Source of the DNA: a virus
Taxonomy: Duplodnaviria; Heunggongvirae; Uroviricota; Caudoviricetes
DNA length: 30,612 nucleotides
IMG/VR virus record: IMGVR_UViG_2859827302_000008
Direction: 5' to 3' (one strand)
Numbering within the stretch: the stretch's first letter is position 1; every line of letters starts with the position of its first letter. Below the pieces are notes generated by a model. The model was given only the letters and a program-made list of their open reading frames with translations, made no database searches and was not told where the DNA came from. The position numbers and the translations under genes were made by a program. Positions 1 to 30,612 of the stretch are shown here, piece after piece.

Positions 1-660
<660 letters not shown>

Positions 661-663
661 CAC

Positions 664-1302
664 GCCAGAGTTTTATTTGAGATCGCAAACAGGGAGGTGG
701 CTTATTACAACATAAGGCAGGAGTTTAATTACTCAACTGAAATTACTGATTTCATGAAAGCGGTATATTTCCTGTATCTCAATCGTCACGGTTACCGTGG
801 TTTATGTCGCTATAACAAGAGCGGGCATTTCAACATTCCCTACGGCAATTATAAAAATCCGTATTTCCCTGAAAAAGAAATTCGCGCATTTGCAGAAAAA
901 GCCCAGCGAGCAACGTTTATCTGCGCCAGCTTTGATGAAACGCTGGCGATGTTGAAGGCGGGGGATGTGGTGTATTGCGATCCACCGTATGACGGTACGT
1001 TTTCCGGCTATCACACTGATGGTTTCACTGAAGATGACCAGTATCACCTAGCATCCGTTCTTGAACATCGGTCATCAGAAGGACATCCGGTCATTGTTTC
1101 TAACAGTGACACATCCCTGATCCGTTCGCTGTATTGCAATTTTACTCACCACTATATCAAGGTAAAACGCAGCATCGGTGTGGCAGCTGGCGAGGGTAAA
1201 TCAGCAACAGAAATCATTGCTGTTTCCGGGCCGCGCTGCTGGGTGGGATTTGATTATTCGCGTGGCGTGGATAGTTCTGCCGTGTACGGAGTACGTGCAT
1301 GA
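664..1302 (+). pseudogene. Dam-family N6-adenine DNA methyltransferase, 5'-truncated
   Basis: Translation aligns with the C-terminal two thirds of Dam (…[16 protein letters not shown]…, catalytic DPPY in VYCDPPYDG). The N-terminal SAM-binding region is absent. The stop overlaps the gene A start (ATGA at 1299..1302). Confidence 0.8.
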
Positions 1303-2823: not shown

Positions 2824-2915
2824 GTAAGCGTACAGCCTGAACCGTCTGGTCAGAATCTGACGAATTAGACAAAGTGGTGTCCACCAAATAAGTAGTGGGA
2901 ACCAAAGTGTCAGAT

Positions 2916-3296
2916 ATGCAGAAAAATGTGAATCCCGGCAGGCGAAAAGGCTGCCCTAATTATCCTCCCGAATTTAAACAGCAGCTCGTTGCTGCCTCCT
3001 GTGAACCCGGGATATCCATCTCAAAACTTGCTCTTGAAAATGGCATTAACGCCAATCTGTTGTTCAAATGGCGACAACAATGGCGCGAGGGAAAGCTGCT
3101 ATTACCTTCTTCAGAGAGCCCCCAGCTACTTCCTGTGACTCTCGATGCAGCTGCCGAACAGCCAGAATCGCTCGCAGAGGATCCGGAAACCCTCAGTATC
3201 AGCTGTGAGGTAACGTTCCGGCACGGGACGCTCCGCTTCAATGGCAATGTCAGCGAAAAGCTCCTGACTCTGCTGATACAGGAACTGAAGCGATGA
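2916..3296 (+). CDS. tnpA: IS66-family accessory protein TnpA
   Basis: First ORF inside the IS; start taken as ATG 2916 (ORF track uses GTG 2895). Stop overlaps the tnpB start (ATGA). Confidence 0.65.
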   Translation: MQKNVNPGRRKGCPNYPPEFKQQLVAASCEPGISISKLALENGINANLLFKWRQQWREGKLLLPSSESPQLLPVTLDAAAEQPESLAEDPETLSISCEVTFRHGTLRFNGNVSEKLLTLLIQELKR

Positions 3297-3640
3297 TCCC
3301 GTTACCTTCCGGGACCAAAATTTGGCTGGTTGCCGGTATCACCGATATGAGAAATGGCTTCAACGGCCTGGCGGCAAAGGTGCAGACGACGCTGAAAGAC
3401 GATCCGATGTCAGGTCACGTTTTTATCTTCCGTGGGCGTTATGGCAGTCAGGTAAAGCTCCTCTGGTCTACCGGCGATGGACTGTGTCTGCTGACCAAAC
3501 GGCTGGAGCGCGGCCGCTTCGCCTGGCCGTCAGCCCGGGATGGCAAAGTGTTCCTCACACCGGCACAGCTGGCGATGCTCCTTGAAGGTATCGACTGGCG
3601 GCAGCCTAAAAGACTGCTTACGTCCCTGACTATGTTGTAA
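3293..3640 (+). CDS. tnpB: IS66-family Orf2 (TnpB)
   Basis: 115-aa ORF in the conserved middle position of IS66 elements, translationally coupled to tnpA. Confidence 0.7.
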   Translation: MIPLPSGTKIWLVAGITDMRNGFNGLAAKVQTTLKDDPMSGHVFIFRGRYGSQVKLLWSTGDGLCLLTKRLERGRFAWPSARDGKVFLTPAQLAMLLEGIDWRQPKRLLTSLTML

Positions 3641-3688
3641 GCCTCTTTATCCTGGTCGACGCTGAATGAGCCTGGTAATATACCCGGT

Positions 3689-5227
3689 ATGAGCAGCTCA
3701 CTTCCTGACGATATCAATGCACTGAAACGTCTCCTTGCCGAACAGGAGGCGCTGAACCGTGCCCTGCTGGAAAAGCTGAACGAGCGTGAACGCGAAATAG
3801 ACCATCTGCAGGCACAGCTGGATAAGCTGCGCCGGATGAACTTCGGCAGCCGCTCCGAAAAAGTCTCCCGTCGTATCGCACAGATGGAAGCTGACCTGAA
3901 GGCACTTCAGAAAGAAAGTGATACCCTTACCGGTCGGGTTGACGACCCGGCCGTGCAGCGCCCGCTGCGTCAAACCCGCACCCGCAAACCGTTCCCCGAA
4001 TCACTCCCCCGCGATGAAAAACGGCTGCTGCCGGCAGCGTCATGCTGCCCGGAATGTGGAGGCTCACTGAGCTATCCGGGTGAGGATGCCGCCGAACAGC
4101 TGGAGTTGATGCGCAGCGTCTTCCGGGTTATCCGGACTGTACGTGAAAAGCATGCCTGTACTCAGTGCGATGCCATCGTGCAGGCCCCCGCGCCTTCACG
4201 GCCCATCGAGCGGGGTATCGCAGGACCGGGGCTGCTGGCCCGCGTGCTGATCTCAAAGTATGCAGAGCACACCCCGCTGTACCGCCAGTCTGAAATGTAC
4301 GGCCGCCAGGGCGTGGAGCTGAGTCGTTCACTGCTGTCGGGCTGGGTGGATGCATGCTGCCGGCTACTGTCACCGCTGGAAGAAGCGCTTCAGGATTATG
4401 TGCTGACTGACGGTAAGCTCCATGCTGATGACACGCCTGTCCCGGTGCTGTTGCCAGGCAATAAGAAAACGAAGACCGGGCGGTTATGGACCTACGTTCG
4501 TGACGACCGTAACGCCGGGTCAACGCTGGCGCCGGCGGTGTGGTTCGCTTACAGCCCGGACAGAAAAGGCATCCATCCGCAGACCCATCTTGCGGGGTTC
4601 AGTGGTGTACTGCAGGCGGATGCATACGCCGGGTTCAACGAGCTGTACCGGGATGGCCGGATAACGGAAGCCGCCTGTTGGGCTCACGCCCGCCGTAAAA
4701 TCCACGATGTGCACGTTCGCACCCCGTCAGCCCTGACGGAGGAAGCGCTGAAACGGATCGGCGAACTGTACGCCATCGAGGCAGAGATAAGGGGAATGAC
4801 GGCGGAGCAGCGCCTTGCCGAACGTCAGTTGAAAACGAAACCGCTGCTGAAATCCCTGGAAAGCTGGCTGCGTGAAAAGATGAAAACCCTGTCGCGACAC
4901 TCAGAACTGGCGAAAGCGTTCGCATACGCCCTGAACCAGTGGCCGGCGCTGACGTACTATGCAGATGATGGCTGGGCTGAGGCGGACAATAACATCGCTG
5001 AAAATGCGTTGCGGATGGTCAGTCTGGGCCGCAAAAACTACCTGTTCTTCGGTTCGGATCATGGAGGAGAGCGGGGAGCGCTGCTGTACAGCCTGATCGG
5101 GACGTGCAAACTGAACGGAGTGGAGCCAGAAAGCTACCTCCGCTATGTCCTTGACGTCATAGCCGACTGGCCGATAAACCGGGTCGGCGAACTGCTCCCC
5201 TGGCGCGTAGCACTGCCGACTGAATAA
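3689..5227 (+). CDS. tnpC: IS66-family transposase TnpC
   Basis: 512-aa ORF with N-terminal coiled-coil, CxxC…CxxC zinc-finger-like motif (CCPECGG…CTQCD) and DDE-type core, ending just inside the right inverted repeat. Confidence 0.85.
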
Positions 5228-7039: not shown

Positions 7040-8689
7040 ATGTTAGTCAAGAAAAATAAAAATTATAGTTTATATTTTTTAATTACAAATAATCAACAGA
7101 TATCTGATTCTGGTAATTATATAAAAATAGTCCCATCAAGAAGCGATTGGAATGATTTTGGATATTTGAGTAGAGTCGAAATATCTATTTTTAATAAAAA
7201 AGAGTGTAAGGATATAATTTCACTGAATGGTTATATTGGTTTTTTGAATTCAGAGGAGGAACGAAATGGAAAAGCAGAACTGATAAGGCGAGTGAAAAAA
7301 AAGGAAGAATCTAATTTAAAGGATGAGGGGTTTAATGATTATTTTGTCATGCTTCAGGATATGAATAATTATCGAAGACTAGTAAGATTTTTTGGGGTGA
7401 ATGAATCCAAATATATATTAAATTTCATTAATGATGTTGTTTCTAAGAAAAGTGACGCTAGTGCAGAGAATTTGAGGAAAAAAGCAATCTCTTCTGATAT
7501 CTTTAATAAATCTTTCATTAGAGAGTCTGAGTCGTATTTTACTTTCAAAAATGCAGGAACAGTTCTTTCCGGTATTCAATATGAGGAGTTGGGTAATTTA
7601 TCACAGCACATCAAGATTAGCTATTCGAATAAAGTTAATGAAGAAGATGTATCTTATGTTTTTAATTTTGATCACGAGCATGATTTACCAAAAAGAATTT
7701 CCATAATTATAGGCGAGAATGGTGTAGGAAAAAGCCAAACGCTTAGAGAAATCGCATTGGCTGCGATTAAAGGAAAGGATAATTTGGTGGCTGTAGTTGA
7801 TTCTAACGGTGTGAGCATTGAAGAACGAATTCAAATTAGTAGGCTCATTGCTTTTTCTCCAACAAATGAAAGTAAGTGTTCATTTCCAACCGATAAAAGA
7901 ATAAAATCATTGATATGGTACAAAAGATTGACTTTAAATCGTGAATCAAAATCCAAATTAAACTTGAATGATTTAATAGTGCAACTAGCGAGGAGTAACG
8001 ACGCTATCGGCTATAATCAAAGGTGGAATATATTTGTTGATGCACTGAGTGTTCTAAATAGTAACAACGATTTAGTAATCAAATGTGGCGGTGAAAATTC
8101 ACCATTTGTTAAATTAAATGAGCTTAATTCTCGAGGCGAAGAATCTAGACTATCATTATATTCTGAAATTATTCTCTCTGGCGAGCCTTTGAGGCTTATT
8201 GAAAATAAATGTTACCCTTTGAGTAGTGGGGAAATATCGTTTATTAAGTTTTGTGTACAAGTCTGTTTGTATATTGAGAATGGGACTCTTCTATTAATAG
8301 ATGAGCCAGAAACACATCTCCATCCTTCATTTATTAATAAATTTATGGCATTGCTTGATAATTTATTAGAAAAGACAGGCTCTTCAGCTATCATAGCAAC
8401 GCATTCGGTTTATCTTGTTCGGGAGGTTTTTAAGGAGCAAGTGACAATACTCAGAAGACGAGATGATGGGGTAATTGTTAGCGAAAAACCGAGATTGAGT
8501 ACTTTTGGGGCGAATATAGGAAATATCTCATATTTTGTTTTCGGTGAGAGTGAACCAACTCAAATTTTAAATAAAGTAAAAAACAATATAATTGCAAAGA
8601 ATATGTCTTGGGATGATGTTGAATCTAAATATAGCGAGGACTTATCACTTAATGTATTAACTGCGTTGAGAAATGAAATGGGCAATTGA
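7040..8689 (+). CDS. ABC-type (AAA_15/AAA_21-like) ATPase with unassigned ~220-aa N-terminal domain; candidate defence ATPase (PtuA-like)
   Basis: 549-aa ORF with GAGAGGG ribosome-binding site. Walker A GENGVGKS (aa ~225-232), signature-like LSSGE (~395), Walker B LLLIDEPE (~417-424), H-loop ATHS (~453). Gene is strongly AT-rich. Confidence 0.85.
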   Translation: MLVKKNKNYSLYFLITNNQQISDSGNYIKIVPSRSDWNDFGYLSRVEISIFNKKECKDIISLNGYIGFLNSEEERNGKAELIRRVKKKEESNLKDEGFNDYFVMLQDMNNYRRLVRFFGVNESKYILNFINDVVSKKSDASAENLRKKAISSDIFNKSFIRESESYFTFKNAGTVLSGIQYEELGNLSQHIKISYSNKVNEEDVSYVFNFDHEHDLPKRISIIIGENGVGKSQTLREIALAAIKGKDNLVAVVDSNGVSIEERIQISRLIAFSPTNESKCSFPTDKRIKSLIWYKRLTLNRESKSKLNLNDLIVQLARSNDAIGYNQRWNIFVDALSVLNSNNDLVIKCGGENSPFVKLNELNSRGEESRLSLYSEIILSGEPLRLIENKCYPLSSGEISFIKFCVQVCLYIENGTLLLIDEPETHLHPSFINKFMALLDNLLEKTGSSAIIATHSVYLVREVFKEQVTILRRRDDGVIVSEKPRLSTFGANIGNISYFVFGESEPTQILNKVKNNIIAKNMSWDDVESKYSEDLSLNVLTALRNEMGN

Positions 8690-9554
8690 AATGAATAAAT
8701 TAAAAAGACCTGTTTTTAAAGATTATTCTGCATTTAAAAAACTATCTGCAAATAAGAGATTAAAACATCATTCTGTTCTGAATGGACAGGATACATTTAT
8801 ACTTAATGCATATAGATCGTACATAAAGAATAAAGGGTATCTTAATGTCAATTCTTGTGGCGTATTGAGTAACAATATTGCTGAAGCTTTGAGATATTAT
8901 TATAACAATCCCGCAAAGTGTTTATCTATAATTGATGATATAAGAGCAGCTAATTCTAACTCTCTATGTCCAATGTGTGGTTCAATGCATAGCGGGACTT
9001 TGGATCATGTTTTACCCAAGGAAAACTATCCAGAATTTTCTTTATTCACTAAGAATTTGGTTCCTGCTTGCAAATGTAATACTTTCAAAAGTACTACTAT
9101 AGCTAATTCTGCAGGCCATCGGATGCTGCATCCATATTTTGATAATATATTAAAACAAAGATTAATATGTGCTAATTTTTCTAAATTAGGGCGAACACCT
9201 ACAATTGATGTAAAAATCATAATTGACCCAATGTCACCAGAATATAACAATGTTAAGTATCATCTTGATAATGTTGTTATCAAGAATAATATTAAGGGGT
9301 ATTTGTCTGAACAATGGGAGTCGTTTTACTTATATCCTGAGCTTGTTATTAGAGGACTGAATAAGAGTCTTTCTACTTATAGCGATGTATATGAGTTGTT
9401 GACTCGCGAGTTGTTGCTGTTGGATGAAAAACATAAAGGTAAAAATAATTGGAATTCGGTTTTTGTAGCTGGGTTAATTCGACCTGATGTGATTAGGTGG
9501 ATACTCTGTGAATTACATTTAGGTAACAGAAGTCCAGACGGTCGTCTCATATGA
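8673..9554 (+). CDS. HNH-family nuclease (His-Me finger with Cys4 zinc site); candidate defence effector (PtuB-like)
   Basis: 293-aa ORF overlapping the ATPase stop by 17 nt (alternative start ATG 8691 directly after the stop). Motif CPMCGS…GTLDHVLPKEN…NLVPACKCN…H matches the CxxC…DH…N…CxCN HNH layout. Confidence 0.8.
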   Translation: MKWAIEMNKLKRPVFKDYSAFKKLSANKRLKHHSVLNGQDTFILNAYRSYIKNKGYLNVNSCGVLSNNIAEALRYYYNNPAKCLSIIDDIRAANSNSLCPMCGSMHSGTLDHVLPKENYPEFSLFTKNLVPACKCNTFKSTTIANSAGHRMLHPYFDNILKQRLICANFSKLGRTPTIDVKIIIDPMSPEYNNVKYHLDNVVIKNNIKGYLSEQWESFYLYPELVIRGLNKSLSTYSDVYELLTRELLLLDEKHKGKNNWNSVFVAGLIRPDVIRWILCELHLGNRSPDGRLI

Positions 9555-9661: not shown

Positions 9662-10696
9662 TTAAGTAGCTAGTTTATAACTATCAAATTTAACAATGTT
9701 CTCACTTACCAATTTATTTATTTCCATCATTCTTTTTTGTAACGGTATTAACTCGTTACGTACAAACACCAGGCTCGCCTTCTCCACATCCCCAAACCCC
9801 CCGACATTATTAGGCATAATCCCCATCATTTGCGGTGGCACACGATGCGCCGCCATCATGTCATCCCGGCTCACGTTCTTGATGTTCAGAAACTCATCCT
9901 TCGCCGCGACTTCTGACAACGGGATGATCTGAAGCCCGTCCTTTTTGCCGTTAGGCGAGTACATAAACAGATTGCGGAAGTTACCTGGTCCTTTGGCGCT
10001 TTTCATCGCATTGCGGAGGTTGTTCACATCCTCCTGGTTTTGCGCGGCATCGGTCATGTACATGATGAAGCCTGCATGACTGCCGTTAATGTAATACTAT
10101 CGGCGGAACAGCGTGGCGGACTCGTTGAGCAGGGCTGACGGAATGGCAGAAAGGTAACCTGGCAGGCCGTAGATCTCTTGGTTGATGTCCGGTTCCATCA
10201 GATGAAAGATGCTTCCTTTCGTGAACTGATACGGCTGCGTGGTCATGCCGTATTGCACAAACCAGTAGGTATCCAGGTCTAATCCGCGTCGGGTGTATTT
10301 TGCCAGAGCAGGCTCAAGAGCGATGACCTCTCCGAACCGGTTTGTGCGTTTCTCCAGGTAAGCGTTACCAAATACCAGATAATCCTGCACAAAACGTGAA
10401 AAAGCCTGCTGGCTGAGCAGCGGGTGAGGGATGTAGGTACTGATCAGAATGTTGCATTTCACCGCAATTGGTGAACTGTGATGCACGGCGGCGCGGAAGG
10501 TGCGCGCCAGTCCGTCAAAACTCACTGGCGGCTCATACCAGCGATCTGTCTGTACGCATTCCACATAGTCCAGTAGTTCACGGCGGTCCAGAACCGGAAC
10601 GGGATCGCCGAAGCTGAATGCTTCGGCTGAAGTCTGGTTTTTATGCTGGGTCTGTTTCGTCGCCGCAGCGCGGTTCTTCTTACTCTTTCCCATCAA
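9662..10696 (-). pseudogene. Q: P2-type portal protein gene Q with one in-frame amber codon (TAG at 10097..10099)
   Basis: Two minus-strand ORFs (10097..10696 and 9662..10063) share one frame and are separated only by the TAG plus 11 sense codons. Combined length (~344 codons) fits a P2-type portal. Confidence 0.85.
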
Positions 10697-12459
10697 AAAA
10701 TCTCCACAATATTGCTGGTATTGGCGGACTCGCCCTGCAGCGGTTCGTTAAACAGTGCGTGCATTGTTGCCCAGGCCAGATCGGCATGGCTGGCTTCTTC
10801 GCTGCGGCTGGCTTCATAGGTCGGGCGGTTGCCGCTGGCGGTGGTGGCGCGACGGATTGCCATGAATGACTGCGCAATGTCGGTGTGCCCGGCGTCAAAC
10901 TCAAGACGGCGGTGGCTGATAATGTCGTAGGCCTTGAGTACCAGGGCGTTTTTAACGTTGGGGTTGTAGACAAACTCCCGGACGGCAGGAAAAAACGCTT
11001 TCACGTTCTCGTAAACCCCGTGACCAACGCCGGTTGAGTCGATGCCGATATAGGTCACGTTGTACTGTTCAGTCAGTTTTTTGATGGCGTAAGCCTGGGC
11101 GCGAAAGTCCATTCCGCGCCACTGGTGACGCTCAAGAATGCGGAACTTACCGCCTGGCACGGCTGGCGGTGCCACCACCACGCATCCGGCGCTGTCGCCG
11201 TTCTGCGTACCTTTTGCCGGGTCATAACCGATCCACACTTCGCGCCAGCCAAACGGGCGCAGGGCCAGTGCATGAAAGTCGGTCCAGACTTCCCAGCTGT
11301 CCACCATGCACGCCTGCAATTCGCTGAGCGGGAACACGGACGCGAGATCGTCCACGAACTCGCACATCAGCAGGTTCTGGTATTCGTCAGGGCTGTACTC
11401 CATGCGCAACTGGTCAAGGTCGAACAGGTTACAGGCGCCGCGCACCGCATCTTCCACGGTGACTATCTGGCGGTATTGCCCGTCTGCGCACAGCAGGCCG
11501 GGGGCCAGATTGCTGTGGGACAGGTCGATGTCCACCTTGTCAGCTTTGTTGCGCCCACGGTTGAACAGCGCACCGGACCAGAACGGATAAGCACTGTGGG
11601 TCAGACTGGATGGTGTGGAAAAATAGGTCTGCCGCCATTTCTTGTGAATAGCCATACCAGAAGCCACTTTGCGTAGCTCCTGAAATTTCGGTATCCAGAA
11701 ATATTCATCCAGATACAGGTTACCGTGATAACTCTGGGCAGTGCGGGCATTGGTGCCGAGGAAATACAGTGTGGCCCCGTTGGGAAGCACCATCGGATCG
11801 CCTTTCAGCTCCACCTCCACTTCTTTGGCAAAGTCGATGATGTACTGTTTGAAGACGTGGGCCTGTGCCTTACTGGCAGAAAGGAAAATCTGGTTACGTC
11901 CGGTAAGCAGGGCGTCAATCAGGGCTTCACGGGCAAAATAGAAGGTCGCGCCGATCTGGCGTGACTTCAGCAGGTTGCGGATGCGGTTGGTTTTTCCGGC
12001 TTCCCACCAGTGGCGCTGGTAGTTGAACATGGAGGAATGGAAATTTTTTTCCAGCTTCTCAATCTGGTCATCGGTGAAAACATTCTTTTCAGGCTGACGG
12101 CGTGGGCCTTTGTTGCGGTTGGCGACGTTAGGGTTTAAGTCGGCTTCGTTGCCGCCATTGTTAAACTTGCCGATCCGCGCGTGGCGCTCAGACTGGCGCG
12201 CCAGCAGGTCAATATCTTTGAAATCTTTCCCTTCTTTGTGCTCCTTCATGATGAGCTGGCAGTAGCGTGCGGCGGTGGTGAGCTGCATCTGATCCAGAGG
12301 CCCATAGTCACCCCACTTGTCGCGTTTTTTTCAGCTGTAAACGGTTGCAACTTTCTCGCCCAGCATTTCAGCAATGCGGGCTACGCGGTATCCCTGAAAG
12401 TACAGCAGCATGGCCTGCCGACGGGGATCGAGATCTGCGGGTGTCAGTGTGGTGTTCAT
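10693..12459 (-). pseudogene. P: P2-type terminase large (ATPase) subunit gene P with in-frame opal codon (TGA at 12331..12333)
   Basis: ATG at 12459 opens MNTTLTPADLDPRRQAMLLYFQGYRVARIAEMLGEKVATVYS, then TGA, then the same frame continues into the 531-aa ORF 10693..12288. Confidence 0.85.
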
Positions 12460-15164: not shown

Positions 15165-15259
15165 CAGAACGTGCCCCCGCGCACGGGCGGCACGGGGTGG
15201 CGAAAGGCACAGCCACATCAAAACCCCGTCCACCGCCCTTTATTTCAGGAGAAAGCAGC

Positions 15260-15706
15260 ATGAAGTTTGTTGCGCCAGAACAGGCACCGGAACAGGCGGA
15301 AATCATTAGAAATACGCCGTTCTGGCCTGATGTGGACCTGTCGGAGTTTCGCAGTGTCATGCGCACTGACGGCACGGTGACGCAGCCGCGTTTAAAGTAG
15401 GTTGCACTGTCGGCAATTTCGGAGGTTAACGCAGAGCTGTATGAGTTTCGCAGACGCCAGCAGATGCTGGGGTATGCGTCGGAACAGCTGGACGGGAAAA
15501 GTGAGCGCATTCAGCACTATTTCAACGCGGTTTACTGCTGGGCTCGCGCCATGCTCAACGAACGTTTCCAGGACTATGACGCCACGGCATCCGGTGCGAA
15601 GCGGGGCGAAGAACTGGCGGAAGCAAGCGGTGATTTGTGGCGTGACGCCCGCTGGGCCATCAGCCGGGTGCAGGACGCGCCGCACTGCACAGTGGAGCTT
15701 ATCTGA
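15260..15706 (+). pseudogene. L: Head completion protein gene L with in-frame amber codon (TAG at 15398..15400)
   Basis: ATG 15260 with AGGAG ribosome-binding site. Translation …NTPFWPDVDLSEFRSVMRTDGTVTQPRLK-stop-VALSAISEVNAELYEF… continues in the same frame to 15706 and resembles P2 gpL on both sides of the stop. Confidence 0.8.
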
Positions 15707-17425: not shown

Positions 17426-17558
17426 CGGTGATCTGAATGCGTTGCTGGATGAAACGGAGGCCGCCTGGGCGGTCTGTGCAGACAAAGTGGACATGATTAT
17501 TGCGTGTCAGGAGCGAAATAGTGAACAAACCACAATCCCTGCGCCACGCCCTCAATAA
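17268..17558 (+). CDS. lysC: LysC, Rz1-like outer-membrane lipoprotein spanin (overlapping lysB in another frame)
   Basis: Signal peptide with lipobox LTLSGC, proline-rich mature part, overlapping the 3' end of lysB. Confidence 0.6.
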   Translation: MRTRIYVAGLILLCLLTLSGCGNVRHSPEVQLTVSGCPRVTPCRLEQAAPRTNGDLNALLDETEAAWAVCADKVDMIIACQERNSEQTTIPAPRPQ

Positions 17559-17952
17559 AGCAGTGCCTTATGTCCGTAATAACCCGGACAAACTGCATCT
17601 GTTTGTGGATAACGGTTCGCTGGTTGCCTCCGGGGCTAGCTCCATGTCATGGGAGTACCGCTACACCCTGAACGTGGTGATTGAAGATTTCAGCGGCGAC
17701 CAGAATCTGCTGATGGCCCCGGTTTTGCTGTGGCTGCGGGATAACCAGCCCGATGCGATCAATAACCCGGCGTTACGGGAAAAGCTATTCACCTTTGAGG
17801 TGGATATTCTGCGCAACGATGTCTGTGATATCAGCCTTAACCTGCAACTGACGGAGCGTGTGCTGGTCAGCACTGACGGCAGTGTGTCGAACGTTGAAGC
17901 GGTAGCGGAACCTGATGAACCTGAAGAAATGTGGACGGTGAAACGTGGCTGA
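17500..17952 (+). CDS. R: Tail completion protein R
   Basis: 150-aa ORF; size, position and similarity match P2 gpR. Confidence 0.75.
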   Translation: MRVRSEIVNKPQSLRHALNKAVPYVRNNPDKLHLFVDNGSLVASGASSMSWEYRYTLNVVIEDFSGDQNLLMAPVLLWLRDNQPDAINNPALREKLFTFEVDILRNDVCDISLNLQLTERVLVSTDGSVSNVEAVAEPDEPEEMWTVKRG

Positions 17953-18346
17953 ATTGCAGAAGGTGGACGACTGGCTGAGTGCATTATTGGCGAATCTGGA
18001 GCCAGCCGCAAGAAGCCGCATGATGCGCCAGCTGGCGCAGGAACTGCGCCGGACACAGCAGCAGAACATCAGGATGCAGCGCAATCCAGATGGCAGCAGT
18101 TATGAGCCGCGCAGGGTAACAGCACGCAGCAAAAAGGGGCGCATCAAACGTCAGATGTTTACAAAGCTGCGCACCACAAAATACCTGAAAACTGCAGCCA
18201 GCGCCGATTCTGCCAGCGTACAGTTTGAAGGTAGGGTGCAGCGCATTGCCCGTATTCACCATTACGGCTTGAGTGATCGCGTCAGTCGAAAAGGTATTTA
18301 TACCATCTATGCGAAAAGGCAGTTATTAGGTTTTAATGTCCGGTAA
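17945..18346 (+). pseudogene. S: Tail completion protein gene S, 3' end replaced by the IS1 terminus
   Basis: GTG-initiated ORF. The last codons and the stop (TAA 18344..18346) lie at the junction with and inside the IS1 inverted repeat that starts at 18342. Confidence 0.7.
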
Positions 18347-18396
18347 TGCTGCCAACTTACTGATTTAGTGTATGATGGTGATTTTAAGGTGCTTGC

Positions 18397-18672
18397 GTGG
18401 CTTCCATTTCCATCAGATGTCCTTCCTGCTCCGCTATTGAAGGCGTGGTGCGTAACGGCAAAAGCACTGCCGGACATCAGCGCTATCTCTGCTCTCATTG
18501 CCGTAAAACATGGCAATTACAGTTCACTTACACCGCCTCTCAGCCCGGTACGCACCAGAAAATCATTGATATGGCCATGAATGGCGTCGGATGTCGCGCC
18601 AGTGCACGCATTATGGGCGTTGGCCTCAACACGGTTTTACGTCACTTAAAAAACTCAGGCCGCAGTCGGTAA
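18397..18672 (+). CDS. insA: IS1 InsA
   Basis: 91-aa [26 protein letters not shown]… with zinc-finger and HTH regions, characteristic of IS1 InsA. Confidence 0.9.
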
Positions 18673-19094
18673 CCTCGCGCATACAACCGGGCAGTGATGT
18701 GATTGTCTGCGCTGAAATGGACGAACAGTGGGGCTACGTCGGTGCTAAATCACGTCAGCGCTGGCTGTTTTACGCGTATGACAGGATACGGAGGACGGTT
18801 GTGGCGCACGTCTTCGGTGAACGCACTCTGGCCACACTGGAGCGTCTTCTGAGCCTGCTGTCGGCCTTTGAGGTCGTGGTATGGATGACGGATGGCTGGC
18901 CGCTGTATGAATCACGCCTGAAGGGAAAGCTGCACGTTATCAGCAAGCGTTACACTCAGCGCATTGAGCGACATAATCTGAATCTGAGACAACATCTGGC
19001 AAGGCTGGGACGGAAGTCACTGTCGTTCTCAAAATCGGTGGAGCTGCATGACAAGGTCATCGGGCATTATCTGAACATAAAACACTATCAGTAA
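18591..19094 (+). CDS. insB: IS1 InsB reading frame (expressed as InsAB' transposase by -1 frameshift)
   Basis: 167-aa ORF overlapping insA in the -1 frame, ending 15 bp before the right inverted repeat. Confidence 0.85.
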
Positions 19095-19109
19095 GTTGGC
19101 AGCATTACC

Positions 19110-19624
19110 ATGCAGCCCTCACAATATAGTTAAAAGCGACATTTCGTGGGCGTGTTTCATTCGCACCTGCAGGTTTAGTCGTTGCCGCAACAACACCACC
19201 CTCTGTAATAGCCGGGTTGGGAATTGGGTAATTATCGAAGTCAATGGCCGGAGACAGGGGCGTGATTTGTTTTAAAATCGTGGTGCCTGTAAAACTTTCC
19301 AGAGTCTGGTCGTTAGTTCGTGAAGTCCAGATTCCCCAATAGTGGTTATGACTGACAATCGCACCGTCCTGAAGCGTTAATAATCCCCTTCCGTTATCCA
19401 CTCCACGTCCGTCATCCCAGCCACGAATAAACTCACCGCGTAAATCAGGCAATTTATTTGTCGGGTAAGCCTTTGCCAGTTCCGGGTATTCTTCAGCAGA
19501 AAAAGCCGCACCATTGCATTTCAGCCAGCCTGTCGGCGGAGTGGCTGAAGGCCACGGAACAGGCACACCAACAGGTAATGCAGAGCCTTCTCCCAAACCA
19601 ACGTTTAAGAAAATGCAGAGATAA
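19110..19624 (-). pseudogene. Orphan tail-fibre variable C-terminal segment (Sv'-type, inverted orientation), lacking its constant 5' partner
   Basis: Minus-strand translation …PVPWPSATPPTGWLKCNGAAFSAEEYPELAKAYP…ETRPRNVAFNYIVRAAW is typical of invertible-segment tail-fibre tips. The 5' end begins within the gix-like site and the 3' end abuts IS1, which supplies the stop codon. Confidence 0.65.
19599..19624. promoter_or_regulatory. gix/pix-like DNA-invertase crossover site
   Basis: TTCTCCCAAACCAACGTTTAAGAAAA versus recalled gix consensus TTATCCAAAACCTCGGTTTACAGGAA. It lies inside the tail-fibre reading frame, next to the invertase gene. Confidence 0.5.
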
Positions 19625-19668
19625 TGGCTAACTGGCATCATCTCCGGTTTTTATTCAGGGGATTGATC

Positions 19669-20235
19669 ATGCTTATTGGCTATGTACGCGTGTCAACAAA
19701 TGACCAGAACACCGATTTGCAACGTAATGCACTGAACTGCGCGGGATGTGAGCGGATTTTTGAGGATAAAATCAGTGGCACTAAGCCCGACAGACCGGGG
19801 CTTAAAAAACTGCTCAGGACACTATCGGCAGGAGACACGCTGGTTGTCTGGAAGCTGGACAGACTGGGACGCAGTATGCGGCATCTTGTTACGCTGATAG
19901 AAGAGTTGCGCCAGCGTGGTGTGAATTTCCGAAGCCTGACTGACAGTATTGATACCAGTACCCCAATGGGCCGTTTCTTTTTTCACGTCATGGGGGCTCT
20001 GGCTGAAATGGAACGTGAACTGATAGTTGAACGTACCAGAGCAGGGCTGGCTGCAGCTCGTGCCAAAGGCAGAGTAGGTGGACTCCGTCCTAAGTTGACC
20101 ACCGAACAGTGGGCACAGATTGGACGTTTACTCGAGGCCGGAGAATCAAGACAGCGTATTGCACTGATTTTTGATGTGGGCGTTTCTACCATTTATAGAA
20201 AATTTCCGGCGAATGAGAGCAATGAATCGCCCTGA
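19669..20235 (+). CDS. pin: Serine-recombinase DNA invertase (Pin/Gin/Hin/Cin family)
   Basis: Translation MLIGYVRVSTNDQNTDLQRNAL…VVWKLDRLGRSM…GALAEMERELI… carries the catalytic Ser in YVRVST and a C-terminal HTH. Start taken as ATG 19669. Confidence 0.9.
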   Translation: MLIGYVRVSTNDQNTDLQRNALNCAGCERIFEDKISGTKPDRPGLKKLLRTLSAGDTLVVWKLDRLGRSMRHLVTLIEELRQRGVNFRSLTDSIDTSTPMGRFFFHVMGALAEMERELIVERTRAGLAAARAKGRVGGLRPKLTTEQWAQIGRLLEAGESRQRIALIFDVGVSTIYRKFPANESNESP

Positions 20236-20283
20236 GTCAGTATTATTTTGATTTTTCCTGTAAGCGGACAAATACCGTCATTT

Positions 20284-20301
20284 TGTGTGAATAACGACAC
20301 A
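20284..20301. promoter_or_regulatory. Ogr/Delta-type late-promoter dyad TGT-N12-ACA upstream of FI
   Basis: TGTgtgaataacgacACA about 75 bp upstream of the FI start. Confidence 0.4.
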
Positions 20302-20377
20302 ACTGCGCTTAGCTGTTTGTCAGGCACAATCACTTCAACATAGGGCGAAGCCTAATCCAATCAGGAGGTTCGCCACT

Positions 20378-21550
20378 ATGGCTCAGGATTACCACCACGG
20401 GGTGCGCGTTGTTGAAGTCAACGAAGGCACCCGATCCATTACCACGGTGAGCACCGCCATCGTGGGTATGGTCTGCACGGGCGATGATGCCGATGCAAAA
20501 ATGTTTCCTCTTAATAAACCTGTGCTGATCACTGATGTGCTGACCGCCAGCGGTAAAGCGGGTGAGTCTGGCACGCTGGCCCGTTCGCTGGATGCCATCG
20601 CTGACCAGGCAAAACCCGTGACCGTTGTTGTGCGTGTGCCGCAGGGTGAAACGGAAGAAGAAACCACAACCAATATCATTGGCGCAGTGACCGCCGAGGG
20701 TAAAAAAACAGGTATGAAAGCCCTGTTATCTGCCCAGTCACAGCTCGGCGTTAAACCGCGCATTCTCGGCGTGCCAGGTCACGACACGAAGGCGGTAGCT
20801 ACTGAGTTGCTGAGCGTGGCGCAAAGCCTGCGTGGATTTGCTTACCTGTCAGCGTATGGTTGCAAGACGGTGCAGGAAGCAATCACTTACCGTGAAAACT
20901 TCAGTCAGCGTGAAGGAATGCTGATCTGGCCCGACTTTACTGGCTGGGACACGGTGCTGAATGCCGAAGCAACGGCTTATGCCACCGCCCGTGCGCTCGG
21001 TCTGCGCGCTAAAATTGATGAGCAGACCGGATGGCACAAAAGCCTGTCCAACGTGGGCGTGAACGGTGTCACCGGAATTTCTGCTGATGTGTTCTGGGAT
21101 CTGCAGAACCCGGCAACCGATGCAGGTCTGCTTAACCAGAACGATATCACCACGCTTATCCGCAAAGACGGTTTCCGCTTCTGGGGTTCCCGCTGTCTGA
21201 GCGATGATCCGCTCTTTGCCTTCGAAAACTACACCCGCACGGCGCAGGTGCTGATGGACACGATGGCAGAAGCGCACATGTGGGCGGTGGACAAACCGCT
21301 GAACCCGTCGCTGGCCCGCGACATTATCGAAGGTATCCGCGCCAAAATGCGTAGCCTGGTCAGTCAGGGCTATCTCATTGGTGGTGATTGCTGGCTGGAC
21401 GAGTCGGTGAACGATAAAGACACGCTGAAAGCCGGGAAACTCACCATCGATTACGACTACACGCCAGTGCCGCCACTTGAAAACCTGATGCTGCGTCAGC
21501 GCATCACCGATCAGTACCTGGTGAATTTCTCCAGCCAGGTCAGCGCGTAA
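20378..21550 (+). CDS. FI: Tail sheath protein (gpFI-like)
   Basis: 390-aa ORF with AGGAGG ribosome-binding site; size and position match P2 FI. Confidence 0.9.
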
Positions 21551-26118: not shown

Positions 26119-27215
26119 ATTTCAGCTCTGAACTGCTTAACAAAGGCAACAAAACTCCGGCATTCAGCATCAGTATTGAAGGCAGGGATATCACCACTGT
26201 GCTGGACAACCGCCTGATGGGGCTGACGCTGACGGATAACCGGGGCTTTGAGGCGGACTAGCTTGATCTGGAGCTGGACGACGCCGATGGAAAAATCGTG
26301 CTGCCGCGCCGTGGGGCTGTCATTACGCTGGCGCTGGGCTGGAAGGGACAGCCGCTTTTCCCGAAAGGGGCATTCACGGTGGACGAGATTGAACACACTG
26401 GCGCACCGGATCGCCTGACTATCCGGGCGCGAAGTGCTGATTTTCGTGAAACGCTGAATACCCGCCGTGAAAAGTCGTGGCACAAGACCACCGTTGGGGA
26501 AGTGGTGAAGGAAATAGCTGCGCGGCACAAACTGAAGATGGCATTGGGTGAAGACTTGTCGGATAAACTCGTGGAGCATATAGACCAGACTAATGAGAGT
26601 GACGGCAGTTTTTTGATGCGGCTGGCGCGCCAGTACGGTGCTATTGCGTCGGTGAAAAATGGCAATCTGTTATTCATCCGGCAGGGGCAGGGTAAAAGCG
26701 CCAGCGGTAAACCACTACCGGTGATCACTATCACACGCAAGGACGGCGACAGTCACCGCTTTACCCTGGCAGATCGCGGAGCTTACACGGGCGTCATTGC
26801 CAGCTGGTTGCATACCCGCGAACCCGCGAAGAAAGAAAGCACCACGGTGAAGCGTAAGCGCAGGACTAAGAAGCAGAAGAAAGAGCCGGAAGCGAAGCAG
26901 GGCGATTACCTGGTGGGTACGGATGAAAACGTGCTGGTACTTAATCGCACTTATGCCAACCGGAGCAACGCCGAACGGGCAGCGAAAATGCAGTGGGAAC
27001 GCCTGCAACGCGGCGTTGCATCATTCTCGCTACAACTGGCGGAAGGGCGGGCAGATCTCTACACAGAAATGCCTGTGAAGGTCAGTGGCTTTAAACAGCC
27101 GATAGATGATGTGGAATGGACCATTACGACTCTGACGCATACTGTCAGCCCGGATAACGGTTTTACGACCAGTCTGGAGCTTGAAGTGAGGATTGATGAT
27201 TTCGAAATGGAATGA
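26115..27215 (+). pseudogene. D: Tail protein gene D with in-frame amber codon (TAG at 26259..26261)
   Basis: GTG 26115 opens VNFSSELLNKGNKTPAFSISIEGRDITTVLDNRLMGLTLTDNRGFEAD, then TAG, then the same frame continues LDLELDDADG… through the 305-aa ORF to 27215. Confidence 0.8.
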
Positions 27216-30303: not shown

Positions 30304-30612
30304 GGTAATGACTCCAACTTACTGATAGTGTTTTATGTTCAGATAATGCCCGATGACCTTGTCATGCAGCTCCACCGATTTTGAGAACGACAGTGACTTC
30401 CGTCCCAGCCTTGCCAGATGTTGTCTCAGATTCAGATTATGTCGCTCAATGCGCTGAGTGTAACGCTTGCTGATAACGTGCAGCTTTCCCTTCAGGCGTG
30501 ATTCATACAGAGGCCAGCCATCCGTCATCCATACCACGACCTCAAAGGCCGACAGCAGGCTCAGAAGACGCTCCAGTGTGGCCAGAGTGCGTTCACCGAA
30601 GACGTGCGCCAC
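30304..30612 (-). mobile_element. IS1, partial (continues beyond window), inverted relative to the first copy
   Basis: Terminus GGTAATGACTCCAACTTACTGAT at 30304 followed by the insB reading frame on the minus strand. Confidence 0.9.
30319..30612 (-). CDS. insB: IS1 InsB, 3' portion (partial at window edge)
   Basis: 97-aa translation identical to the C-terminal part of InsB from the IS1 at 18591..19094. Confidence 0.85.

Follow-up and report, generated by a model that had tools for sequence, protein, structure and literature searches.

When only one crossover site is left beside the gene of a site-specific DNA invertase, what is the enzyme a remnant of, and could it still have something to act on? 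The question is raised by a stretch of Caudoviricetes DNA of 30,612 nucleotides (IMG/VR record IMGVR_UViG_2859827302_000008), the whole of which is called the window here. A first-pass annotation, made from the sequence alone, had described an intact but orphaned Pin-like invertase next to a single gix-like site, with the partner site and the alternative tail-fibre segment gone, and had suggested that the enzyme may act in trans. The comparisons described below indicate that the locus is very probably what is left of the right-hand side of a Pin/Fin-type host-range switch of the tail fibres in a P2-family (Peduoviridae-like) prophage, which lies beside ybjL in a Shigella lineage and was disabled via an IS1-associated deletion. 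The features on which this reading depends are collected in Table 1.

Table 1. Positions of the features discussed, numbered from the first nucleotide of the window.
Feature	Position	Strand	Remarks
gpR	17500-17952	+	Late operon of P2-like prophage
gpS (tail completion/virion morphogenesis), cut after ~codon 132	17945-18341	+	Last codons and stop from IS1 end
IS1, 768 bp	18342-19109	+	insA and insB' frames; InsA and DDE_Tnp_IS1 domains (Pfam)
Alternative tail-fibre C-terminal segment, promoterless, Sv'-type, StfE-like	19110-19613	-	Constant N-terminal part absent
Single 26-bp Din-family crossover site, pixR type	19588-19613	.	TTCTCCCAAACC-AA-CGTTTAAGAAAA, central AA 19600-19601
Pin/Fin-like serine DNA invertase gene	19669-20235	+	188 aa, frame open, catalytic Ser9 present
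Stretch homologous to recombinational (Fis) enhancer	19687-19758	+	Homology to P1 cin nt 19-90 only
Codon 139 of the invertase gene	20083-20085	+	CTC (Leu) vs CGC (Arg) in relatives; Gly-Arg arm joining helix E to HTH domain
Tail sheath gene	20378-21550		Downstream of invertase

The extent of the invertase gene was settled by homology. A longer ORF (19624-20235, 203 aa) is also open, its extra N-terminus being a gene-caller extension. From the ATG at 19669 (MLIGYVRVS...), which is preceded by AGGGGA, the alignment with Gin runs position by position from the first residue (3uj3, E 2.5e-91), and the real product is therefore 188 aa long. This is within the ~185-195 aa expected of the Din family (Hin/Gin/Cin/Pin), whose serine near residue 9-10 is found here in the GYVRVST motif, which aligns with that of Gin; Pfam places a Resolvase domain (2.8e-53) and an HTH_7 domain (1.3e-13) in the protein. 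Identity to the characterized members is high over the full length, at 84% with PinE of e14, 77% with Cin of P1 and 73% with Gin of Mu, so that the name Pin-like was well chosen. The counterpart in the intact prophage of Escherichia coli ATCC 8739 is 98% identical, and the label Fin was found on a homologue cluster of 85% identity (P0015). NCBIfam has no Pin/Fin-specific model, and only distant serine-recombinase models matched the invertase, all of them under cut-off; a PADLOC search gave no match to it. Simple scans for promoters and terminators around the gene returned chance levels only.

The crossover site lies 55 bp upstream of the start of this gene. It is embedded in a tail-fibre frame, as had been noticed earlier: the minus-strand ORF 19105-19641, in which it occupies the codons ...FLNVGLGE..., encodes a phage tail Collar domain (Pfam). 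The position first given for the start of the locus, 19599, falls within the site, the true extent of which is 19588-19613. When the site was compared with the Din-family sites published in Table 3 of PMC3241671, 25 of 26 positions were identical to pixR of prophage e14, as against 17 of 26 for gix and 17-19 of 26 for the gix/cix types in general. The earlier description of one site beside the invertase was correct in number; the type is closer to pix than to gix. The sole difference from pixR is an A for T at position 21. This change does not appear to damage the site: a 35-nt stretch holding the site has exact matches in 474 E. coli records, and the identical site belongs to an intact switch in p13TMH22-1, where another high-scoring site lies within H. 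The variant appears from these occurrences to be a natural form of the pixR-type site. The molecule p13TMH22-1 (L021; E. coli 13TMH22, 36,172 bp, circular) is a P2-like genome with an intact fibre switch that was deposited as a "plasmid"; it has an IS1203 insertion in the gpR region.

The search for a partner covered the whole window. With up to three mismatches allowed, the site has no other match in the 30.6 kb (0.00 expected in shuffles), the core AAACCNNNGTTT occurs in chance numbers, and scans with half-sites gave nothing above noise. In a consensus scan the site scored 18/20 and the next best position 13/20. A half-site weight matrix (PWM) was built from nine published hix, gix, cix, pix and bix sites; it gave the site 29.1 bits and the next best position 7.7, while in 100 shuffled versions of the window the highest score averaged 9.2 bits and peaked at 18.2. 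With the pix sites left out of the matrix, the values were 25.0 and 10.1 bits. The same PWM found two sites at 27-33 bits in each of six intact comparison systems (the ATCC 8739 prophage, e14, Mu, P1, phage pro483 and p13TMH22-1), and the third-best position in these reached at most 11 bits. A complete Din-type switch has two inverted sites; the window has one in 30.6 kb. The orphan reading could have foundered on a second gix-like site within the window, and none was returned by the mismatch, core, consensus and half-site scans or by either PWM.

The place where the partner should lie is evident from the intact relatives. Their genes run R, S, (cargo gene), V, W, J, I, H and tfa; tfa' and Sv' follow on the opposite strand, and the invertase and sheath genes come last. 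One site lies within H and the other, inverted, just before the invertase, at a distance of ~1.85 kb (7624 and 9479 in ATCC 8739, 5576 and 7479 in pro483, 6155 and 8005 in p13TMH22-1). By inversion of this ~1.85-kb segment the constant part of H acquires one or the other of two C-termini; the reaction depends on a Fis-bound enhancer in the 5' end of the invertase gene. The partner site, present in these relatives, is absent from the window, and to that extent the invertase, with its open gene and its one crossover site, is orphaned locally, as was first proposed. The fibre segment has fared better than had been supposed. Over the full length its product shares 98% identity with the 177-aa "phage tail protein" that ATCC 8739 encodes, and it is longer by one Trp. 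On the right the break falls at the initial base of the Sv' stop codon, for which the IS1 end supplies ...RAA-W-stop, so that the fibre C-terminus has kept all its codons up to the last. The alternative segment is thus not gone, the remnant itself being one of the two alternative C-termini; what the fibre module has lost is the constant portion of H and the second variable portion, together with both assembly (tfa) genes and the partner site.

The element that stands in place of these genes is a complete IS1 by its length, its frames and its terminal inverted repeats of 23 bp (~23 bp in IS1), which are 100% complementary (18342-18364 and 19087-19109). To its left, the Phage_tail_S domain of gpS (Pfam) covers profile positions 2-132 of 148, and the stop codon, TAA, lies inside the IS1 end; the intact gpS homologue is 148 aa long and continues beyond ...LLGVN. 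Alignment of the window with intact relatives stops at 18288-18294, inside gpS, and resumes exactly at 19110, from where the DNA is 96-97% identical through the fibre remnant into the sheath gene (20997). IS1 bridges gpS to the end of Sv' and replaces ~4.95 kb by comparison with p13TMH22-1, or ~6.6 kb by comparison with ATCC 8739, which has an extra cargo gene. The replaced content comprises the 3' end of gpS, the V, W, J and I baseplate genes, H with the partner site, and both tfa genes. The cargo gene of ATCC 8739, annotated as "P-loop ATPase, Sll1717 family", is located between gpS and gpV (L001 2526-4037), and pro483 and p13TMH22-1 are without it. Cargo at the S/V junction is therefore variable, and this junction is also the starting point of the Shigella IS1 deletion.

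Simple insertion of IS1 leaves a direct target-site duplication of 8-9 bp. None is found around this copy: the flanks GTTTTAATGTCC and ATGCAGCCCTCA do not match, and the bases immediately adjoining the element, ...TTAATGTCC on one side and ATGCAGCCC... on the other, differ. This fits a deletion, by IS1 adjacent deletion or IS1-IS1 recombination, and not a simple insertion. A deletion tied to one IS1 copy would have removed everything from codon ~132 of S through the stop codon of Sv', and on this comparison of sequences an IS1-associated deletion appears to be the cause of the loss of the partner site. We infer that it came about either as an adjacent deletion or through recombination between two IS1 copies.

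Any IS1-IS1 recombination would fit the lack of a target duplication, including one that moved the block from V to H, with the partner site, to another place, from which distant sites could permit a large chromosomal inversion. Shigella genomes are rich in IS1, and the window holds a second copy just past ybjM (30304-30612), which is inverted, 98.7% identical to the first, and partial, being cut by the window end. From Sv' past ogr as far as ybjL, however, the genes are arranged and oriented as in the intact ATCC 8739 prophage, and therefore nothing between the two IS1 copies has been inverted; moreover, the fibre remnant is joined to the invertase in every contig read, with no alternative joint at the site. 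Relocation of the block is accordingly regarded as very improbable, and deletion remains the preferred reading.

The contigs came from a look-up of the invertase allele, which is indexed in 362 blocks of the collection searched; 24 contigs, falling into eight groups, were read. The sources name the exact protein as belonging to Shigella dysenteriae or to "MULTISPECIES Shigella". In all eight loci shown for these contigs the crossover site and the right IS1 junction are intact, and in seven of the eight the left junction is identical as well, the eighth (L009) belonging to a contig that ends earlier, inside IS1. Since multicopy IS1 breaks short-read assemblies, such an ending might suggest a collapsed repeat that hides an intact segment. 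Identical junctions are nevertheless found in independent assemblies with contigs of 4.3-4.8 Mb (CP026823, CP026840, CP026805, CP026842, CP026828 and PSSQ01000001), and an artefact of assembly is scarcely conceivable. The locus in CP026828.1 is identical to the window over 17500-20400. A single arrangement was seen throughout the 24 contigs, with no rearrangement at the crossover site. In 5,426 complete E. coli genomes the same IS1 configuration was not found, none of them covering at least 80% of 17500-20400; in species-representative genomes, which carry little weight as there is one per species, neither the IS1-fibre junction nor the site was present. By this distribution the lesion is old enough to be common to a Shigella lineage. 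A literature search found no description of this Shigella remnant, which offers a clean, datable case of the disabling of a P2-family prophage by IS1, with its breakpoints and lost content defined.

The consequences for the switch follow from the established mechanism of the family. A Din-family invertase needs two inverted sites on the same supercoiled molecule, together with an enhancer. The single site left can therefore not be recombined locally, and the locus is best read as a dead switch. The enhancer, on the other hand, is presumed to have been retained. The P1 record annotates it at nt 19-90 of cin, within the 5' end of the invertase gene, and the homologous stretch of the window is identical to that of ATCC 8739. 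In an alignment of five invertases this stretch has a mean column identity of 88%, a value to be read with the fact that the stretch is also coding sequence. It contains G-N13-C 15-mers at 19690-19704 and 19739-19753.

The protein itself has changed at one position of likely consequence. That the gene is intact, as stated in the first-pass annotation, is true of the reading frame; it is not true of the arm that enters the minor groove in this family, where an otherwise invariant Arg has been replaced. The conserved Gly-Arg arm reads GGRRPK in the relatives and GGLRPK in the window. Arginine occupies position 139 in 116 of 116 scorable homologue cluster representatives and in Pin, Gin and Cin; even the 98%-identical ATCC 8739 protein has it, encoded by CGC. 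The HTH_7 alignment of the window invertase begins at profile position 3, and that of its relatives at position 1, positions 1-2 being lost. The Leu139 sequence had an exact match in none of the 682 E. coli records that have the stretch, and a look-up by the junction-specific fibre protein, which is unbiased as to the invertase, returned six loci, all six with Leu139. The substitution R139L is, by its distribution, derived and unique to this lineage; with the IS1 junctions, the Leu139 codon could serve as a lineage marker.

Residue 139 is R139 of Gin and aligns with R142 of gamma-delta resolvase. Its equivalent in Hin, R140, is reportedly required for hix binding. For Tn3 resolvase, the arm is presented as an AT hook that docks into the minor groove (PMC9943657), which supports such a role. 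Partly at odds with it, R139 was outside the residues listed as indispensable when hyperactive Gin, in zinc-finger fusions, was scanned with alanine (PMC3985619). The change to leucine probably weakens DNA binding by the invertase, and, given the Gin scan, it may just lower its activity. Relaxed selection was sought in the substitution counts. Changes specific to the window number 10 synonymous and 2 non-synonymous (S40P and R139L) in the invertase gene and 31 and 3, respectively, in the sheath gene, which are too few to conclude anything. Loss of invertase function is not demonstrable by sequence alone, the frame being open in every assembly and the changes mostly synonymous.

An open frame in all contigs read, in a prophage whose neighbouring genes are broken in various strains, might mean that the orphan invertase is still active and has been kept for action in trans, either on another Din-type segment carried by the Shigella genome, such as one in a defective Mu-like or other tail-fibre prophage, or on cryptic sites. 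One invertase of this family can stand in for another across elements and hosts (PMC8987985, which cites Tominaga 1997 and Kutsukake 2006), S40P is the only change in the catalytic domain, and the enhancer-homologous stretch is conserved. Yet a gene of 567 bp can escape disruption by chance, and an invertible segment elsewhere would normally have an invertase of its own. The 30.6-kb window contains no other site, the simple scan found no promoter-like site upstream of the gene on the plus strand, and R139L removes the arginine that is invariant among the homologues. Retention for use in trans is therefore judged unlikely, and it seems quite unlikely that the R139L enzyme is still active in the Shigella lineage, acting in trans on another segment or on a distant or cryptic site. 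If it were, a dead prophage would be supplying a working recombinase for variation of the host genome or surface. Under the reading preferred here, that of a switch disabled by deletion, the invertase gene has outlived its substrate as an open frame while gaining the lineage-specific R139L, a substitution at an otherwise invariant DNA-binding residue.

Comparison with other systems places the locus among the known Pin/Fin-type fibre switches of P2-family phages; mechanistically it offers nothing new. Fin of Salmonella Fels-2 is presumably, by its annotation, a member of the same P2-family invertible tail-fibre systems. The P2-family relatives pro483, ATCC 8739 and p13TMH22-1 share the late-operon context of the window, in which the invertase gene has the fibre module on one side and the tail sheath gene on the other, and the ATCC 8739 prophage shares the integration site beside ybjL. 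The relatives differ in having two sites, a full H, both tfa genes and V/W/J/I, a set broken up in the window by the IS1-linked deletion, and in having Arg139. The P-pin region of e14 (stfP/tfaP/tfaE/stfE/pinE) resembles the window in its minus-strand StfE-like C-terminus, with the site in the 5' end and the invertase directly downstream, and both prophages are defective. However, the P segment of e14 is preserved in full, as are its two pix sites (2779 and 4606 in L010), whereas the window has only the pixR-side site, and PinE has Arg139 where the window invertase has Leu139.

As an orphan the window gene resembles pinR of the Rac prophage of E. coli K-12, where an invertase-family gene likewise neighbours tail-fibre genes, the prophage is defective and a usable site pair is lacking. 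The pinR locus differs in that its 12-kb region has no Din-type site above 10.7 bits, and so no recognizable site, whereas the window has one high-scoring site, a complete fibre C-terminus and the IS1 still in place. The G-gin system of Mu and the C-cin system of P1 have the same enzyme family and the same 12-2-12 site architecture, but with gix and cix site types, in another phage family, and as complete two-site switches. The significance of the locus is slight beyond annotation, and the process is ordinary prophage decay. For annotation, neither the ORF 19105-19641 ("phage tail protein") nor the "recombinase family protein" gene should be taken for part of a working phase-variation switch; both are to be recorded as remnants.

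A prophage without its baseplate and fibre genes would be unable to make tails, and signs of decay are seen elsewhere in the window. The replication gene gpA is shortened (1299-2840, 513 aa), apparently interrupted by an IS66-family element that follows it directly (2895-5227, plus strand; an HTH_Tnp_1 orf, TnpB_IS66 and DDE_Tnp_IS66). Further decay, with some strain-specific lesions, is found at 9662-12288 (minus strand), 15197-15706 (plus) and 26298-27215 (plus): the portal is a fragment of 133 aa, the terminase has 531 aa as against 588 aa in sister Shigella loci, the head-completion gene L (gpL) is split in two, and gpD is apparently broken, likewise in CP026828.1, unlike in other strains. 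The left end of the window (1-1302, plus strand) begins inside an rve-type (IS3-family-like) transposase ORF, which is followed by a Dam-like D12 methyltransferase matching profile positions 87-253 only and hence 5' truncated. A cargo pair at 7040-9554 (plus strand) consists of a 549-aa AAA_21/AAA_15 ATPase and a 293-aa partner without a Pfam domain; it matches the PADLOC candidate defence system PDC-M01 (A, 3.2e-55; B, 1.2e-33), with weaker matches to PtuA and AriA.
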